A stretch of DNA of 64,000 nt from a virus. Taxonomy: Duplodnaviria > Caudoviricetes. The stretch is taken from IMG/VR virus record IMGVR_UViG_3300010355_000588; one strand, written 5' to 3'. The notes below the pieces were generated by a model that was given only the letters and a program-made list of their open reading frames with translations, had not been told where the DNA came from and did no database searches. Below, piece after piece: positions 20,877 to 57,705 of the stretch. Position 1 is the first letter of the stretch, and each line of letters starts with the position of its first letter. The translations under genes and the position numbers were made by a program.

Positions 20877-22559
20877 CTAATTCTTAGAATATACCAGATT
20901 GCCACAGTCCCAAATTCTGTCAAAACCGAAGATCTGCATATTCTCCCATTCAGTTAGCTTAGGGTCAAATCCTTCCAATTTAGCAATTATATGCTTTTGA
21001 TATTGCATCCTAGATATTCTTCTAGTATAATCTTTTCTATTGACAAACCAATAATTAGGTAAAGATACATGTGAAAGCTTAAATCCAAGCTTTTCATAGA
21101 AGGCCTCAGTTGAACTCCACCTTCTATCAGCAAACGAAACTATACTAGTTGGGTGGTAGACCCTCTCAAAATAAGTAAGCATCTTAGAAGCAACGCCAAC
21201 TATCTTGAAATTAGATATTGTACAAAATCGTATAAGCTCCCACTCGTATTTCTTGGAAAATCTAGACTTGCTAAATGTCATTACAGCTACTAATCGATTC
21301 TTATAGTAAGCACCCAACCTTACCTTAGAATTATTAGAGCCTTGGATATGGTACTTGTCAACAAAATCAGAAGATATCTTGTTTGATATCTCTCTGATCT
21401 CACATTTTCTGGCATGGATTTTTCTATGAATTAGCCCTAGAATGTTCTTTAGTCTAGAATATACTATCTTTTCTTTGTATATCCATTCGTCTTCAAAGAT
21501 GTGTATAAGTCTGATTCCTTTTTGTTCACATTCTAATGTTTTGGCCAGATGTTTTTGTGGAGGGGTGTTGGCATGCCAATAGATTCCGTCGCATTCAATC
21601 GCCAGGCCATGTCCAGGAACGTATAAATCCAATTCTAGACCATTATCTAAAATCGTTCTATCATGTAGTTTAGCTTCTATTCCATAATTGGATAGAAAAT
21701 TCATAAGTCTCTTTTCAAAAAAGGTGGTCTTTATGTCGCATTCTGGACAAAGAGGGACGCCACCATTATGATACCATCTAAGAAAAACCATACCACATCT
21801 ACTGCATCTCCAAGGATATTTTGTAGAATAACCACCACCTCCAGAACGTACGTAGTCTTCTTCTGAAAACAGAGGAACTACTAAATTGGAAAATCGATCC
21901 AGAGTAGAATAAGTATGGCGCATTTTACCTTCGTTTATTTTCCTTCTAGATTCTGGATTCTTGTTTGGATTATTGCGTTTGAATAAATTAGATTCAAGAT
22001 ACGCAGCATTTTTTACGCCATGTCTCTCCATCATAGTGGCTTCAATCTTCTTAACCACTTCCTTATTGCCCATCGCGTTCCTCGAGCCATACTTCTTCAG
22101 GCAAGTCTCTGCCCGCTTCTGCTTGCTGGCTTCGTCGCCTTTGGCAAACTTCTTGTAGCACTCCCTCGAGCAGAAGTGCTTGGTGGATTTCTTGGATACC
22201 TCGAAGGTTGCTCCACATTGACAGCTTCTAACTTCTCTTGGAATCTTCTCCTTCTTAGAGTGCTGATATTTAGTGGAACAACTGGTAGAACAGAAGCCTT
22301 TGACGTAACTTTCTCTAGGTAGATAGAAACTATCGTATGGATAGATTTCTTTGCCACAAGTCATACAGACTGGATGCTCGGTTATCTCGTTGAAAATACA
22401 GAATATTCTTTCTGAGATGGTGGTCTTTCTGTGGTTCAGAAAAGAGGTAGCGTCAACGACGTCCTGAAGCAATCCAAGCTTCTTTAGATATGATTCGGTC
22501 ACATATCTAGGCTTTTTATGCTGCAATATTTCTTGAAGTTTTTGCGTCAATGAATTCAT
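20877..22559 (-). CDS. Putative homing endonuclease (Hef-like; Zn fingers, Vsr-like PD-(D/E)xK domain, C-terminal domain)
   Basis: CLKKYG-type repeats, ELDLYVP...AIECDGIYWH...LIHIFEDEW, ELIRFC, FADRRW, IWDCG; likely start is MNSLTQ. Confidence 0.8.
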   Translation of the reverse strand: MNSLTQKLQEILQHKKPRYVTESYLKKLGLLQDVVDATSFLNHRKTTISERIFCIFNEITEHPVCMTCGKEIYPYDSFYLPRESYVKGFCSTSCSTKYQHSKKEKIPREVRSCQCGATFEVSKKSTKHFCSRECYKKFAKGDEASKQKRAETCLKKYGSRNAMGNKEVVKKIEATMMERHGVKNAAYLESNLFKRNNPNKNPESRRKINEGKMRHTYSTLDRFSNLVVPLFSEEDYVRSGGGGYSTKYPWRCSRCGMVFLRWYHNGGVPLCPECDIKTTFFEKRLMNFLSNYGIEAKLHDRTILDNGLELDLYVPGHGLAIECDGIYWHANTPPQKHLAKTLECEQKGIRLIHIFEDEWIYKEKIVYSRLKNILGLIHRKIHARKCEIREISNKISSDFVDKYHIQGSNNSKVRLGAYYKNRLVAVMTFSKSRFSKKYEWELIRFCTISNFKIVGVASKMLTYFERVYHPTSIVSFADRRWSSTEAFYEKLGFKLSHVSLPNYWFVNRKDYTRRISRMQYQKHIIAKLEGFDPKLTEWENMQIFGFDRIWDCGNLVYSKN

Positions 22560-22573
22560 ATTTTCAATTTGAC

Positions 22574-23122
22574 TCAGTTCTTTCTTCTTGAACACCATGC
22601 TTTACAATCAGTTACTGGCGGTCCATAGTGCATCTTATCTTTTTGCCACCAGGCTGGACCATTCTCTGGAATCCAGTGGCACTTGCGCTCAATTTGTCCA
22701 ACGCTCTGCCCTTTGTTGTCTTTTTTCACATAATATGCTTCGCAATTTTTGCAGTTCCCACAATATTTCTCGTCCTGTAGAACGCATCCATTCAGCGTCC
22801 ACGGATGAAGTGGAAACGAACTGCCTAACTTTTCAATAGCAGTTGCTCTCCATACGCCAGAATCCTCTAAGAACTCCGTCATCAGATAAGTGCATGGATC
22901 GCCAGCGAACGTATATTTCTTTCCAACTTCAAGAGGATTGCCGTTCGAGTCGACCGGAGGTTTCCAGCGGTATTTGCTATCAAAGTCCCATGCAAGTTGA
23001 TCTGGTGGCACGTCCATCCATCTTCCATTAGCTTTACAAAGTATTTGAACTAGCCTGTTCAAAGGGTTTTCCATCCAAATCTTCATCATATCGTAGTGTG
23101 GATGTCTGTATTCAAAGTTCAT
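22574..23122 (-). CDS. Hypothetical protein, YRWKPPVDSNGN family
   Basis: Paralog of 23136-23696 and 50894-51385. Confidence 0.7.
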   Translation of the reverse strand: MNFEYRHPHYDMMKIWMENPLNRLVQILCKANGRWMDVPPDQLAWDFDSKYRWKPPVDSNGNPLEVGKKYTFAGDPCTYLMTEFLEDSGVWRATAIEKLGSSFPLHPWTLNGCVLQDEKYCGNCKNCEAYYVKKDNKGQSVGQIERKCHWIPENGPAWWQKDKMHYGPPVTDCKAWCSRRKN

Positions 23123-47606: not shown

Positions 47607-48593
47607 TTAGACTGTAAAGGTTAGATCCAAATATTTTGTAGCATATTTTTTGGTGGTGCTGATTCTGACATTGGTTATCTTAGGACTGAAGGCAAGCTCC
47701 ATAAGCTCTCTTACCATTGGGTGGGCTGCCTTAGATTCTCGAAGACTCCTGATATATTTCCACTGGTCATCAGTTGCTGTCATGATTAGTTCGGTCTTAA
47801 GACCATTTGGCAAGACACTGCGCGCCATTTGCGGACTTAACCCTTGGTTCAATAAGCACTCATATGCTTGGGCTGACAAAAGCATCGATTTCTTAATAGT
47901 GTCAGAATCATATTCGATGAAGGTTATTTCTTCTCCATAATTGCAGTATCTAGTGGATTCTTGGCTAAAGGAAGCAAGCCGGTGTCTGACAAGCTCGTGA
48001 GAAATGCCACGGTCGGTGACGAAGCGAAACGTGGAATATTTGGTGTCTTGCTCGAAGACATACGAATGGCCGGCAATCATGCCAGCGTGAGTCTTCATTG
48101 CTGTAGTAGAAAAAGAAAGCAATCTATCGAACTCAGGAAAGATCCTACATAATTCTCTGACTACATAATTGATTTCTATCTTTTTGGCAATAGAACCAAA
48201 AGTCGGATCGTTCCATGTTTGGTTTAGTAGAATTGCCCAAGATCTAAGATTTCCAGATATCTCCAATGCTTTCTCATCCTGTACAGTGACCTCCCTATAT
48301 TCCATTCCTTCGAAGATCAGCATGTATTTTTCAAACTCGCTGAGATATGAAGAACGGGGCGTCTCTTTACAGAATAAGCGCCTCATACTGATCCTAACAT
48401 GTTCCAATACGCTATGATGGCCATTCTTGACGATCTTCTCATAGAATGCCAATGCAGACCCTTCTTTGATCTTGTCTTCAGACTTGTAGCACACCCTTCC
48501 ACATATCTCGATCTTCTTGAGGATGTCTTTTTCGTCGATGCGCTCAGCAGACTGAGGAACAAAGCGCACTGTCAAGCTTCTAGATTTATTCAT
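47607..48593 (-). CDS. thyX: Flavin-dependent thymidylate synthase
   Basis: GHHSVLEH, RGISHELVRHRLASFSQESTRY, ARSVLP, AHP. Confidence 0.95.
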   Translation of the reverse strand: MNKSRSLTVRFVPQSAERIDEKDILKKIEICGRVCYKSEDKIKEGSALAFYEKIVKNGHHSVLEHVRISMRRLFCKETPRSSYLSEFEKYMLIFEGMEYREVTVQDEKALEISGNLRSWAILLNQTWNDPTFGSIAKKIEINYVVRELCRIFPEFDRLLSFSTTAMKTHAGMIAGHSYVFEQDTKYSTFRFVTDRGISHELVRHRLASFSQESTRYCNYGEEITFIEYDSDTIKKSMLLSAQAYECLLNQGLSPQMARSVLPNGLKTELIMTATDDQWKYIRSLRESKAAHPMVRELMELAFSPKITNVRISTTKKYATKYLDLTFTV

Positions 48594-49939
48594 TTCAAAA
48601 TCTCCTTGAGTTCTTTTAGTTCGTTCTTCCAGATGTCCTTGGCTGAAGTGGTGGCGATCTCGTTGTGTTGCTTGGTTTTTTGAGTTAGCTCAGTTTTCAG
48701 CCGTTCAAGCGATTCCTTGGTAAGCTGTCTGATGGGCGTGTTCAATAGATAGTCGAACGACCCGTTCTTCGTGACGATCTTGTCGGCCTTCTTTAGCTTT
48801 TCAATGACATCCTCTTCTGAGACATTGTACAGTTCGAGTTCCTTAGACATGTATAGCTTGATGAAGCATGCCCTGGATATCAGCCATGAGATTTCTTGCT
48901 TTAGTTCGGCCATTTGCTTCTGGCGTCTGAGTTCGTAATACCTCAGCCTAACTTCCATGTAGCGTTCGATAATGTCTTCGATGGATTTAGCCGTATCGTC
49001 GATGCGAATGTCCCCGTCGAGATTTAGATAGGTAAAGTTCTCAGTCACCGGCTTTACGAGCTTTAGAACGTTCTTCTTGAGATTCTGTTCGTCCTTTAGG
49101 AGTTCGGCAAGCTTCTGTCTAGTGAATGATACGACAAACTCAAAATGAGAATCAGTTGACTTATCGGCATAGTCGGAAATTACGTCGTCTTCCTGCAGCT
49201 TATCGAGCACCTTCACATATCCAGCCAGGTCATATTGTGGCGGAATCTCGGTTATATGGATGGTGTTGGTGTTCTTGACAGAATATAGTCCTTCGAACAA
49301 CCAGGAGCCATTTTCCTCAATGACCTTGCCTTTCCATCCAATATAATGGGGTGCCAATCTAGGTAGCTTGGTACCGTCGAGTCTAGCCAGCAGCCAGTCG
49401 ACTACCGTCTTTGGATTTCTAGGCAGAATTTTCTGGGCGAATCCAGTAGATATGCCTTCAGATCCGTTGATGGCGATCAGTGGCACGATTGGCAAGAGGA
49501 ACTTGGGCTCGATCTTGTCGCCTTCGAATTCCTGCTCGATTAGCACTGGGGTATCTTCTTTTCTGAAGATCTTCCAAATGTAGTCTTCGTAGCAGGTATA
49601 GATATACCTGGAAGCTGCTGCCTCTTGGATAGACCTGGTTCCGAACATGCCTTCCCTCTTGAGCAGGGGCAGGTTGTTCGATCCGACGAAGTTCTGAGCC
49701 AATCCAACAGCCACTCCGGTGAGCGACACTTCGCCGTGGATATAGGCGCAGAATTCTGCACATTTTGAAGACAGCTGGGCCACCTTGACCGGCTGCTTGA
49801 TATTATTGACCATTACTGTCCATAGAATCTTCCTAGCGCTTGTCTTCAGCCCATCGATATTAGAACCTATCTTACGATAATTGTCGTAGACTGAGTAGTC
49901 GCAATATTCGTTACGGAAGAAGCTGTCGATTTTCATCAA
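48590..49939 (-). CDS. DNA topoisomerase II medium subunit (gp52, GyrA-like)
   Basis: DGLKTSARK, YIHGE, FGTR, AASRYI (catalytic Tyr), GISTGF, TEIP. Confidence 0.95.
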   Translation of the reverse strand: MMKIDSFFRNEYCDYSVYDNYRKIGSNIDGLKTSARKILWTVMVNNIKQPVKVAQLSSKCAEFCAYIHGEVSLTGVAVGLAQNFVGSNNLPLLKREGMFGTRSIQEAAASRYIYTCYEDYIWKIFRKEDTPVLIEQEFEGDKIEPKFLLPIVPLIAINGSEGISTGFAQKILPRNPKTVVDWLLARLDGTKLPRLAPHYIGWKGKVIEENGSWLFEGLYSVKNTNTIHITEIPPQYDLAGYVKVLDKLQEDDVISDYADKSTDSHFEFVVSFTRQKLAELLKDEQNLKKNVLKLVKPVTENFTYLNLDGDIRIDDTAKSIEDIIERYMEVRLRYYELRRQKQMAELKQEISWLISRACFIKLYMSKELELYNVSEEDVIEKLKKADKIVTKNGSFDYLLNTPIRQLTKESLERLKTELTQKTKQHNEIATTSAKDIWKNELKELKEILK

Positions 49940-54994: not shown

Positions 54995-55070
54995 TGGCCT
55001 CCCGAGCAGGGATCGAACCTGCGGCCTGCTGATTAGAAGTCAGCTGCTCTGTCCTCTGAGCTATCGGGAG
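54995..55070 (-). tRNA. tRNA-Arg (anticodon TCT)
   Basis: 76 nt; CTCCCGA/TCGGGAG acceptor stem, GCTGA-CTTCTAA-TCAGC anticodon arm, GGTTCGATCC T-arm, encoded CCA. Confidence 0.95.
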
Positions 55071-55590: not shown

Positions 55591-56155
55591 TCAGATCGAA
55601 AATAAATCGAAATTTTTCTGCTTCAGATACTCCTTACGCTTGTCTGCCTTGGAACTCGAAAGCCAGTCATCGACAATCTGGACGTCAGTAGCTTCGTCGA
55701 AGTCTATCTTGACTACGAATTTGTCCATGCCGACCTTCTTTACCAGATCGCGTAACTCCTCAGTCTTCCAGGTGCCAAGACCCTTGTAGTAATGTTGTTT
55801 ATATTTAGATACATCGTTCTTGGCGACGAAGGCCTGGTAGTCTGGAAGATTCATGAAATGGTGGACGATCTTTCCTTTAGAATCTTTCAGCGTGACAATC
55901 GGGGTCTGAAGCTTGTAGATGTTGTTCTTCAGGATTTCTTTGAAGTGCTTGTAAAAAAGACCGATGTAAAGACCAGTGATATGTGAACCAGTTACTCCCC
56001 AACTAACCATCACCATCAGCATCTGTAGCGATGATGATTTTGTCAAAGTTGCTGGTTCTATCTACCTGGTTGCAGTTCATGGTTCTTCTTACATTAGTCT
56101 GTTGTTGGTAGGCGTTCATATCTACCTTAGACTTGTTGATCTTTTTGAACTTCAT
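55591..56155 (-). CDS. Topoisomerase II small subunit (gp60-like) with a 19-nt coding gap; join(56155..56006, 55986..55591), 181 aa
   Basis: MKFKKINKSKVDM...NVRR...IIIATDADGDG, TAG, then SHITGL...TPIV...YYKGLGT...RKEYL in another frame. Confidence 0.85.
55987..56008 (-). other. Putative ribosomal bypass element
   Basis: GGT TAG TTGGGGAGTAACT GGT: matched codons, stop, hairpin, GGAG. Confidence 0.75.
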
Positions 56156-57705
56156 GGAGTATCTCCCTTTATTAGATTTTTCACGCCAATCCAAGACCCA
56201 TTTATCTCAATTTCGTCCTCTAATCGGGCTACTATTTTCTCTCCGTCTACTTCAAATTCGTACCATTCTTCAGGTTCTGCCTTCCCAATCTGTAATCCAC
56301 AGATCTGGAATATCTCCTGCATTTCTTTGTTGTCAATGATGCGCTTCTCGGTAGATTCATAGGCGTTCAACGGGACACCTCTAGAGCCATAGTAGGCGAA
56401 GTGCTTCCGACCAAAGGCTGCCGATAGACCACCCATGGCAGACATCCCTTCGCAGATGAAGAAAGCCTCAGGGGTGTCAGTAGCTGCCAAATATGCGTCG
56501 GACTTGATCTTCATCTTCTTGAGCTTCTTGTTGAATTCTTCGAGCTCCTTGTTCTTCTTATATTCTTCTCGCAGCTTGAAGATCTCCACGACCGGATCCA
56601 TCAACTTCTCGTTCTTGTAGATCTTGTCGTTGAGCTTCTCGAAGTCCAGACCAGCCAGAAACGCTCTAATCTCTCCGGTTGAGTTGGTTAGACGCTCCTT
56701 GGTTTGGCTGTCGAACTTCGGGTTTGGAAATCCCCTAAACACACAGACAATCTTCAACCGGTTGTAGATGTCAGCTGGCACGATGGTCTTATATTTCTTG
56801 ATTAGTTTGTTGCGGATCTTATAGGAAATCTCGTTGCAGATAAGATCCATGTGGTTGCCACCATTCTTCATGTGCAGTCCGTTGACATATGAAATGGTCG
56901 TGTAGCTATCGGTGTCAGATGGATATACCCCGAGCAAGAAATTGTCAGCTTCTACATATTCGAAGTCTTTTCCATAATATTCCAGATAAGACTTACCTGA
57001 TCTAACATCGATACGCTTGGTATTGAAGTAGAACTTGATCTGAGGAAAGGAGACAGCCAACTGGATAAGCCGTTGTTCAATGACATTCTGATGGTTGGCA
57101 TCGATCTCATTCAATCCAAAACGTTCAAGGTCAGGCGTGAATTGAACAATAGTGAACGAATTCTTGTGGGTGGCCTTCTTGATCTTGTACGACATCTTCT
57201 TGAGATTATCAGTACACTTAAGAATAAGCTTTTCCTTGCCAGAATATGTCTCAACGGAGAATTCCTTAGACCAGACGTTGGTGCAAAAAGCTCCGACGCC
57301 AAAGGATCCAATTGACTTTCTTTCTTCAACAAAGTTAGAACCGGCTTTCGCGTGGGTGAACGCCAGGACGGCCTTTGGCAGCTTTGTCCCCCTGTCGATG
57401 TCCACGGGAACCCCTCTTCCATTGTCTTCCACCTTGACAGAAGTCTTATCGATTGTCACGTAGATTCTATTGGCCTTAGCGAAGTCTGTCTTAATTGCTT
57501 CGTCTACGCTGTTGTCGATGACTTCATTGATGATTTTGGCAAGCCCTGGGACATATGTATATTTCTTGTATTCGAAGAGGTTGGACTCACGGTTCAAGAG
57601 AAAGCCTTCAGCCTCTACGTAGTTAATGGACCCGATGTACATGTCTGGCTTGGTAAGGACATGCTCCTCGTCGGTCAGCTTTCTAATTTCATTATTAGCT
57701 GCCAT
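56152..57705 (-). CDS. Topoisomerase II large subunit (gp39-like; GHKL ATPase plus the N-terminal half of TOPRIM)
   Basis: PDMYIGS, EVIDNSVDE, DNGRGVP, AGSNF, FDSQTKE, CEGMSA, RGVPLN; ends before the DxD motif. Confidence 0.95.
   Translation of the reverse strand: MAANNEIRKLTDEEHVLTKPDMYIGSINYVEAEGFLLNRESNLFEYKKYTYVPGLAKIINEVIDNSVDEAIKTDFAKANRIYVTIDKTSVKVEDNGRGVPVDIDRGTKLPKAVLAFTHAKAGSNFVEERKSIGSFGVGAFCTNVWSKEFSVETYSGKEKLILKCTDNLKKMSYKIKKATHKNSFTIVQFTPDLERFGLNEIDANHQNVIEQRLIQLAVSFPQIKFYFNTKRIDVRSGKSYLEYYGKDFEYVEADNFLLGVYPSDTDSYTTISYVNGLHMKNGGNHMDLICNEISYKIRNKLIKKYKTIVPADIYNRLKIVCVFRGFPNPKFDSQTKERLTNSTGEIRAFLAGLDFEKLNDKIYKNEKLMDPVVEIFKLREEYKKNKELEEFNKKLKKMKIKSDAYLAATDTPEAFFICEGMSAMGGLSAAFGRKHFAYYGSRGVPLNAYESTEKRIIDNKEMQEIFQICGLQIGKAEPEEWYEFEVDGEKIVARLEDEIEINGSWIGVKNLIKGDTP

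Follow-up and report, generated by a model that had tools for sequence, protein, structure and literature searches.

A predicted 19-nt translational bypass in the split topoisomerase II large-subunit gene of a T4-like phage

Genes and signals at the locus

On its minus strand, the window, i.e., the whole 64,000-nt stretch of DNA that was analysed, carries the large subunit of a type II topoisomerase split over two open reading frames (Table 1). ORF1 encodes the ATPase/transducer part and ends in a C-terminal extension (CTE) sharing 40% identity with the C-terminal end of T4 gp39 (pairwise E 6e-14; EWYEFEVDGEKIV...INGSWIGV vs. EWFTFELNGDTII...INGKWITV in T4). The TGA of ORF1 overlaps the ATG of ORF2 at 56155 in the tetranucleotide ATGA, and a homing endonuclease gene (MobA, GIY-YIG or VSR) is absent beside the cassette. 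From this ATG, the upstream frame of ORF2 runs for 50 aa. The C-terminal part of ORF2 is closest to topoisomerases of Vibrio, Campylobacter and Delftia phages (30–36% identity), and the resulting mosaic of a T4-type leader and CTE with a different C-part fits a mobile cassette, as judged from these sequence matches.

Table 1. Features of the topoisomerase locus and its surroundings (window coordinates).
Feature	Coordinates	Strand	Basis
gp52-like topoisomerase II medium subunit, intact; partner needing a functional large subunit	48590..49939	-	PF00521, E 3.7e-71, full-length match
ORF2 part 2, 131 codons + stop, SHITGL... to ...FDLFSI, TOPRIM helix + TOPRIM_C	55591..55986	-	PF16898, E 1.5e-14
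Predicted nested 76-nt RNA hairpin	55984..56059	-	-29.2 kcal/mol, z -4.70, 0/200 shuffles as stable
Coding gap UAGUUGGGGAGUAACUGGU, 19 nt incl. landing codon (T4 counting)	55987..56005	-	Identical string in Table S2 row MGS13
Landing codon GGU	55987..55989	-	Read from sequence
TTGGGGAGTAACT, 13 nt between TAG and second GGT	55990..56002	-	Read from sequence
GGAG mini Shine-Dalgarno, 5-nt spacer UAACU to landing codon	55995..55998	-	Sequence; aligns with T4 GAG in File S3 row nMG4
UAG stop, in A site at take-off	56003..56005	-	Read from sequence
Take-off codon GGU (Gly50)	56006..56008	-	Read from sequence
Predicted inner hairpin, candidate 5' stem-loop; take-off codon ends its 3' arm	56006..56037	-	-12.5 kcal/mol, z -2.37
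ORF2 part 1, 50 codons, N-terminal extension (NTE) + homR region, ends DADGDG	56006..56155	-	Translation; leader homology
ORF1, gp39-like N-terminal part of topoisomerase II large subunit, 517 aa	56152..57705	-	PF00204 DNA_gyraseB, HATPase_c
ORF1 C-terminal extension (CTE), ~44 aa, MobA-element-derived; 5' limit approximate	56155..56286	-	T4 gp39 C-terminus match

The two parts of ORF2 are separated by a short coding gap. On the minus strand, ATC ATC ATC GCT ACA GAT GCT GAT GGT GAT GGT is followed by TAG, TTGGGGAGTAACT, a second GGT and TCA CAT ATC ACT GGT CTT. The interruption lies directly after DADGDG, at the Asp45/Gly46 position of the TOPRIM DxDxDG motif, as in T4 gene 60-type cassettes. 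An earlier sequence-only reading of this DNA had proposed that skipping exactly 19 nt (56005-55987) restores the motif TDADGDG-SHITGL; this gap is indeed present, and the restored motif is in register with homologous proteins. For this comparison, the product of the hop and that of a +1 frameshift were aligned with seven homologues, including VAP7, PhiW-14, CP21, F361, T4 and R13, and the hop product was found to align at TDADxDG|xHI without an indel. It would comprise 181 aa, with a predicted junction peptide ...ATDADGDGSHITGL... / ...IIIATDADGDGSHITGLYIGLFYK.

The matched GGT codons, the UAG immediately after take-off and the GGAG 5 nt before landing, all listed in that reading, were likewise recovered from the sequence. 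Both GGU codons can be read by one tRNA. The 5-nt spacing of GGAG agrees with the 5–7 nt that separate a G-rich mini Shine-Dalgarno sequence from the landing codon in T4 gene 60-type cassettes. For a random insert, the chance of an identical flanking codon is 1/64 and that of an in-frame stop at its start 3/64, so a random insert is unlikely. The GGG and GGA triplets that are present within the 19-nt gap count against a hop.

Homology to known bypass cassettes and prior description

The 50-aa leader of ORF2 was compared by tblastn with 50,697 phage records, in which it matched only gp60-type leaders of bypass-bearing phages, with identities of 46% to T4, 52% to Thanatos-1 and 51% to KARL-1; further matches were to Salmonella, Proteus and Aeromonas phages. 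The T4 gp60 leader was given correctly in the sequence-only reading, the T4 record showing MKFVKIDSSSVDMKKYKLQNNVRRS. In an eight-sequence alignment, the leader showed 39–57% identity to seven known leaders, with Y16, Q19 and R24 being invariant. The signal residues of the NTE in the window are Y16, Q19, V22, R23 and R24. Set against the cassette consensus (Y16, Q19, V22, R/K24, Y/F33 and T/S40), the window has Y16, Q19, V22, R24, F37 and T44, the Y16–R24 block being displaced by an insertion. This insertion, of the five residues CNQVD, precedes the homR part and is found relative to all seven other leaders. It places the nascent signal 4–5 residues farther from take-off than in other cassettes, which counts against a hop.

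Gap lengths were determined at seven annotated phage loci and in the window by T4 counting, in which the landing codon is included and which gives 50 for T4. The gap measures 17 nt in 50AhydR13PP, 19 nt in the window, 42 nt in Stupor, 43 nt in KARL-1, 48 nt in S16, 50 nt in T4, 51 nt in Pm5461 and 52 nt in Thanatos-1. Alignment with T4 gp60 and a search of related phages for variable gaps, as had been suggested, revealed T4-type leader homology and gaps of 17–52 nt. All seven known cassettes interrupt the gene at the same Asp/Gly codon, and in each of them take-off and landing are served by one tRNA (GGA/GGA, GGU/GGU, GAU/GAC, GAC/GAC, GGU/GGC or GGG/GGA) and the codon after take-off is UAG or the rare AGG.

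The locus shares with T4 gene 60 the glycine site of the TOPRIM DxDxDG motif and the division of the large subunit into two ORFs whose CTE and NTE are homologous. In both, the Gly codons match, UAG comes next and a GAG-type mini Shine-Dalgarno sequence stands 5–6 nt before landing. The differences concern the gap (50 nt with GGA in T4, 19 nt with GGU in the window), the take-off stem-loop CC-UUCG-GG and the AU-rich spacer (the former missing from the window, the latter almost so), the greater distance of the nascent signal from take-off and the lack of a MobA gene. A closer likeness in gap architecture is offered by Aeromonas clade 6 (50AhydR13PP, Aes012, AS-gz), where a drastically short gap also starts with UAG followed by a G-run and only a reduced take-off stem-loop is present. 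The gap of R13, UAG C GGGG UUAAUC GAC, resembles that of the window, UAG UU GGGGAG UAACU GGU. Unlike the window, this clade uses the Asp codons GAC/GAC, one codon earlier, has a gap of 17 nt and belongs to a different phage lineage, and in R13 the endonuclease is still adjacent. The mitochondrial byps of Magnusiomyces capitatus and single-codon tRNA hopping in E. coli have, according to the literature, matched take-off and landing codons and a retained peptidyl-tRNA in common with the locus, whereas their sequence is unrelated, they have neither a Shine-Dalgarno nor a nascent-peptide signal and they operate in a different genetic system.

The locus had been regarded as a new bypass candidate in the sequence-only reading. 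This did not stand, since the identical locus was already predicted by Manning & Atkins (bioRxiv 2022, doi 10.1101/2022.08.31.505936), who assign dozens of homologous cassettes for bypassing to the MobA mobile element. When strings from the window were searched in the supplements of the preprint, exact matches were obtained. Row MGS13 of Table S2 (clade 12) contains the same ORF2 DNA, including GGTTAGTTGGGGAGTAACTGGTTCA, and the same ORF1 start, and its predicted hop product, MKFKKINKSKV...DADGDGSHITGL..., is that of the window. The source of MGS13 is anaerobic-digester metagenomes (IMGVR_UViG_3300025871_000001 and 3300009780_000002), and the row bears the note "ORF1 and ORF2 overlap", with no endonuclease. 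In File S3, row nMG4, which corresponds to MGS13, has TAG, GAG and GGT set beneath the T4 elements. No sequence difference was seen between MGS13/nMG4 and the window; an explicit length of 19 nt does not appear in the accessible parts of the preprint. In these parts, the GGU/GGU pair of Thanatos-1 and the shorter Aeromonas clade 6 cassette are also described, endonuclease loss is given as common in decayed members, and the NTE insertion is what makes MGS13 "puzzling" in the discussion (doi 10.1101/2022.08.31.505936). Two details of the available text differ from our values: it gives GAU as take-off and landing codon for MGS13 and MGS11, whereas its rows nMG4 and nMG12 and the DNA show GGT/GGT, and it puts the Aeromonas clade 6 gap at 20 nt, against 17 nt when counted in the way that yields 50 for T4. 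A later paper or an experimental test on MGS13 was not found in the literature. As a prediction, and only as such, the bypass locus of the window was therefore already on record.

Two further assemblies contain the locus. Over 5.4 kb that include the gap, identity to the window is 99.98% for JGI contig 3300009780 Ga0116156_10000015 (164,090 nt) and 100% for ENA contig ERZ27257428 k141_664329 (163,887 nt). Presence of the same 19 nt in three independent assemblies excludes an assembly artefact, and the near-complete identity (~100%) of all known copies makes these uninformative on selection. The description of the host as a very distant phage was fair in that near-identical DNA had no match among the 50,697 phage records, though T4-like portal and major capsid genes are present in the window. 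Scans of viral contigs with the C-part of ORF2, its nearest relative and the leader alignment, together with a protein search, returned no diverged relative carrying the cassette, and a search of 5.8 billion proteins with the 50-aa leader returned only the leader itself. Among the scan matches, L008 and L018 were unrelated topoisomerases and L017 was Proteus phage Pm5461; none was informative.

The nearest relatives of the ORF2 C-part (L011:40-110, L012:140-220, L019:330-400 and L020:320-395) show 52% aa identity and represent two alleles, which are 94% identical downstream and in both of which the frame breaks at one position, the D|G junction of DxDxDG that is also interrupted in the window. 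The first has an intein end (...DVLSHN|CDG), then GAC GGG C GGA CAT, i.e., one extra nucleotide with CGG as the next codon. The second is an unsplit large subunit without CTE or NTE (...ANDADND), then GAC CG GAC GGA CAT, with five extra nucleotides and a matched GAC/GAC pair. Neither allele was found in the supplements of the preprint; very short hops or +1 shifts could be involved, or the alleles could be dead. An in-frame intein (ILVHN|CDGIHI) occupies this site in a more distant relative (L022:1052-1633, 41% aa identity), where a gp52-like gene lies downstream. Mobile insertions of several kinds appear to have a hot spot at the DxDxDG junction.

RNA structure around the gap

A small hairpin in the gap (GGUUAGUUG/UAACUGGU), put forward in the sequence-only reading, did not hold up in a folding test. 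With -3.5 kcal/mol and z -0.62, it was matched by 51 of 200 shuffles, and as a take-off hairpin it is rejected because its stability does not exceed that of shuffled sequence. The take-off region of T4, tested in the same way, reached -17.5 kcal/mol (z -2.6). The locus has no take-off stem-loop of the T4 type, with its stable tetraloop, which counts against a hop; such a stem-loop is also lacking in the short Aeromonas cassettes, whose membership of the class is accepted.

A larger, nested structure of 76 nt is strongly predicted around the gap (Table 1). When the protein was kept fixed and codons were redrawn from phage usage, 7 of 1000 synonymous resamples were as stable, compared with 40 of 1000 for the inner hairpin. 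The outer helix of the large structure, GAACCAG/CUGGUUC, holds the landing codon, and its middle helix, ACUUU/GGAGU, holds the mini Shine-Dalgarno sequence. A description of the nested hairpin was not found in the available text of Manning & Atkins 2022. The NTE insertion was considered as the 5' arm of this hairpin and rejected, the arm lying within codons R33–D38, just 3' of CNQVD.

We tentatively raise the possibility that the nested hairpin replaces the T4-type take-off hairpin in the short cassette. The inner stem could close fully only after the take-off codon has left the ribosome, which corresponds to a slide of roughly the length of the gap; by analogy with the 5' stem-loop of T4, refolding of this stem once the ribosome has passed could promote a slide of similar length. 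If true, hop length in minimal cassettes would be set by exit-side refolding.

Probable programmed bypass and its alternatives

No known departure from triplet decoding is more extreme than programmed bypassing, which, to our knowledge, was known solely from T4 gene 60 for 30 years. The arrangement in the window is, in our assessment, probably a programmed translational bypass in a decayed MobA-type cassette, residing in the topoisomerase II large-subunit gene of a ~164-kb T4-like phage. The earlier view of the locus as a GGU-based relative of the gene 60 bypass is well borne out by homology and by anatomy (GGU/GGU, UAG, mini Shine-Dalgarno sequence and gp60-type leader). According to this model, the cassette would have split the gene into ORF1 with its CTE and ORF2 with its NTE, and the homing endonuclease between them would since have been lost. 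A ribosome translating ORF2 would arrive at the Gly50 codon GGU with UAG in the A site, upon which the peptidyl-tRNA-Gly would detach and the mRNA slide by 19 nt. The tRNA would then re-pair with the second GGU, positioned by the GGAG 5 nt upstream, and decoding would resume at UCA CAU to yield the product of 181 aa, in which the TOPRIM motif, DADGDG-SHI, is intact. That hopping takes place, how efficient it is and what RNA structure contributes to it are inferences. The hop is favoured over its rivals because a matched GGU stands exactly before the resumption codon, the stop and the spacing of the mini Shine-Dalgarno sequence are preserved, the partners are intact and the cassettes to which the locus is homologous have an experimentally proven prototype.

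Loss of the endonuclease counts against the hop insofar as the cassette could be decaying. At its extreme, the locus would be a remnant that has lost the endonuclease and most of the gap, with ORF2 a pseudogene or expressed in traces and the phage left without a full topoisomerase. The absence of a stable take-off hairpin, the altered spacing of the nascent signal and the nearest relatives, which are likewise frame-broken at the site, would all agree with such a fate. However, both halves of ORF2 as well as ORF1 and gp52 are intact, with no further stops or frameshifts, and the stop, the matched codons and the mini Shine-Dalgarno spacing are kept, which would be unexpected from a random decay from 50 to 19 nt. 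Since a similar short cassette is, moreover, retained in several Aeromonas phages, we regard a non-functional remnant as unlikely.

A +1 frameshift at GGU_UAG would bring the two parts of ORF2 together without a hop, the stop stalling the ribosome and reading continuing at AGU, so that SWGVTG is placed between DADGDG and SHI. In its favour, a 19-nt gap amounts to a shift by +1, such shifts are classically stimulated by a stop in the A site and, as pointed out in the sequence-only reading, the +1 frame is open across the gap (from 56046) and would insert six residues. In the alignment, these residues fall where none of the seven homologues has a residue (0/7), at a junction at which 7/7 homologues align without an indel. 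Furthermore, the tRNA-Gly from GGU would have to re-pair with GUU, matching at two of three positions only, and neither the second GGU exactly before UCA CAU nor the homology to hop cassettes would be explained. The frameshift is, hence, considered quite improbable.

Even slightly less credit is given to the synthesis of three separate polypeptides, in which a 50-aa peptide ends at UAG and an internal AUG at 56010-56008, overlapping the stop (AUGGUUAG), starts MVSWGVTGSHI.... Gene callers do give ORFs of 139–143 aa at the site, and the AUG/UAG overlap could permit termination-reinitiation, but no Shine-Dalgarno sequence precedes the internal AUGs and the matched GGU would find no explanation. 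In addition, such an arrangement would separate the metal-binding DxDxD loop from its helix without the added interface peptides that are seen at the ORF1/ORF2 split.

Removal of the 19 nt at the RNA level by cleavage and ligation, for which the position of the gap inside a strongly predicted hairpin and a ligase-family protein encoded in the window could be adduced, or an assembly or sequencing artefact is hardly credible, given the identical gap in three independent assemblies, the lack of any known bacterial or phage system that excises 19-nt mRNA segments and the homologous T4 cassettes being unspliced, as is established for T4.

Natural minimal cassettes, with gaps of 17–19 nt, no stable take-off hairpin and a shifted nascent signal, are useful tests of which signals are required. 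This point, as well as the sequence of the window, is already in the literature, as far as the accessible parts of the preprint go (Manning & Atkins 2022). The present analysis adds an independent confirmation, figures on which the small hairpin is rejected, a larger structure that is statistically significant and the recurrence of the 19 nt in three assemblies. As a natural minimal variant, the locus is still well suited to experiments, and relative to those parts of the preprint, the larger hairpin is a new, testable detail.

Two minor features of the window were also recorded. A tRNA-Arg (anticodon TCT, reading AGA) lies at 54995-55070 on the minus strand, about 500 nt downstream of the topoisomerase genes. 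Adjoining the gp23-like capsid gene is a 573-aa ORF (20877-22598, minus strand) with sub-threshold matches to MTES_1575, a restriction-endonuclease-like domain, and to DUF7487, which, from these matches, may encode a homing-type nuclease.
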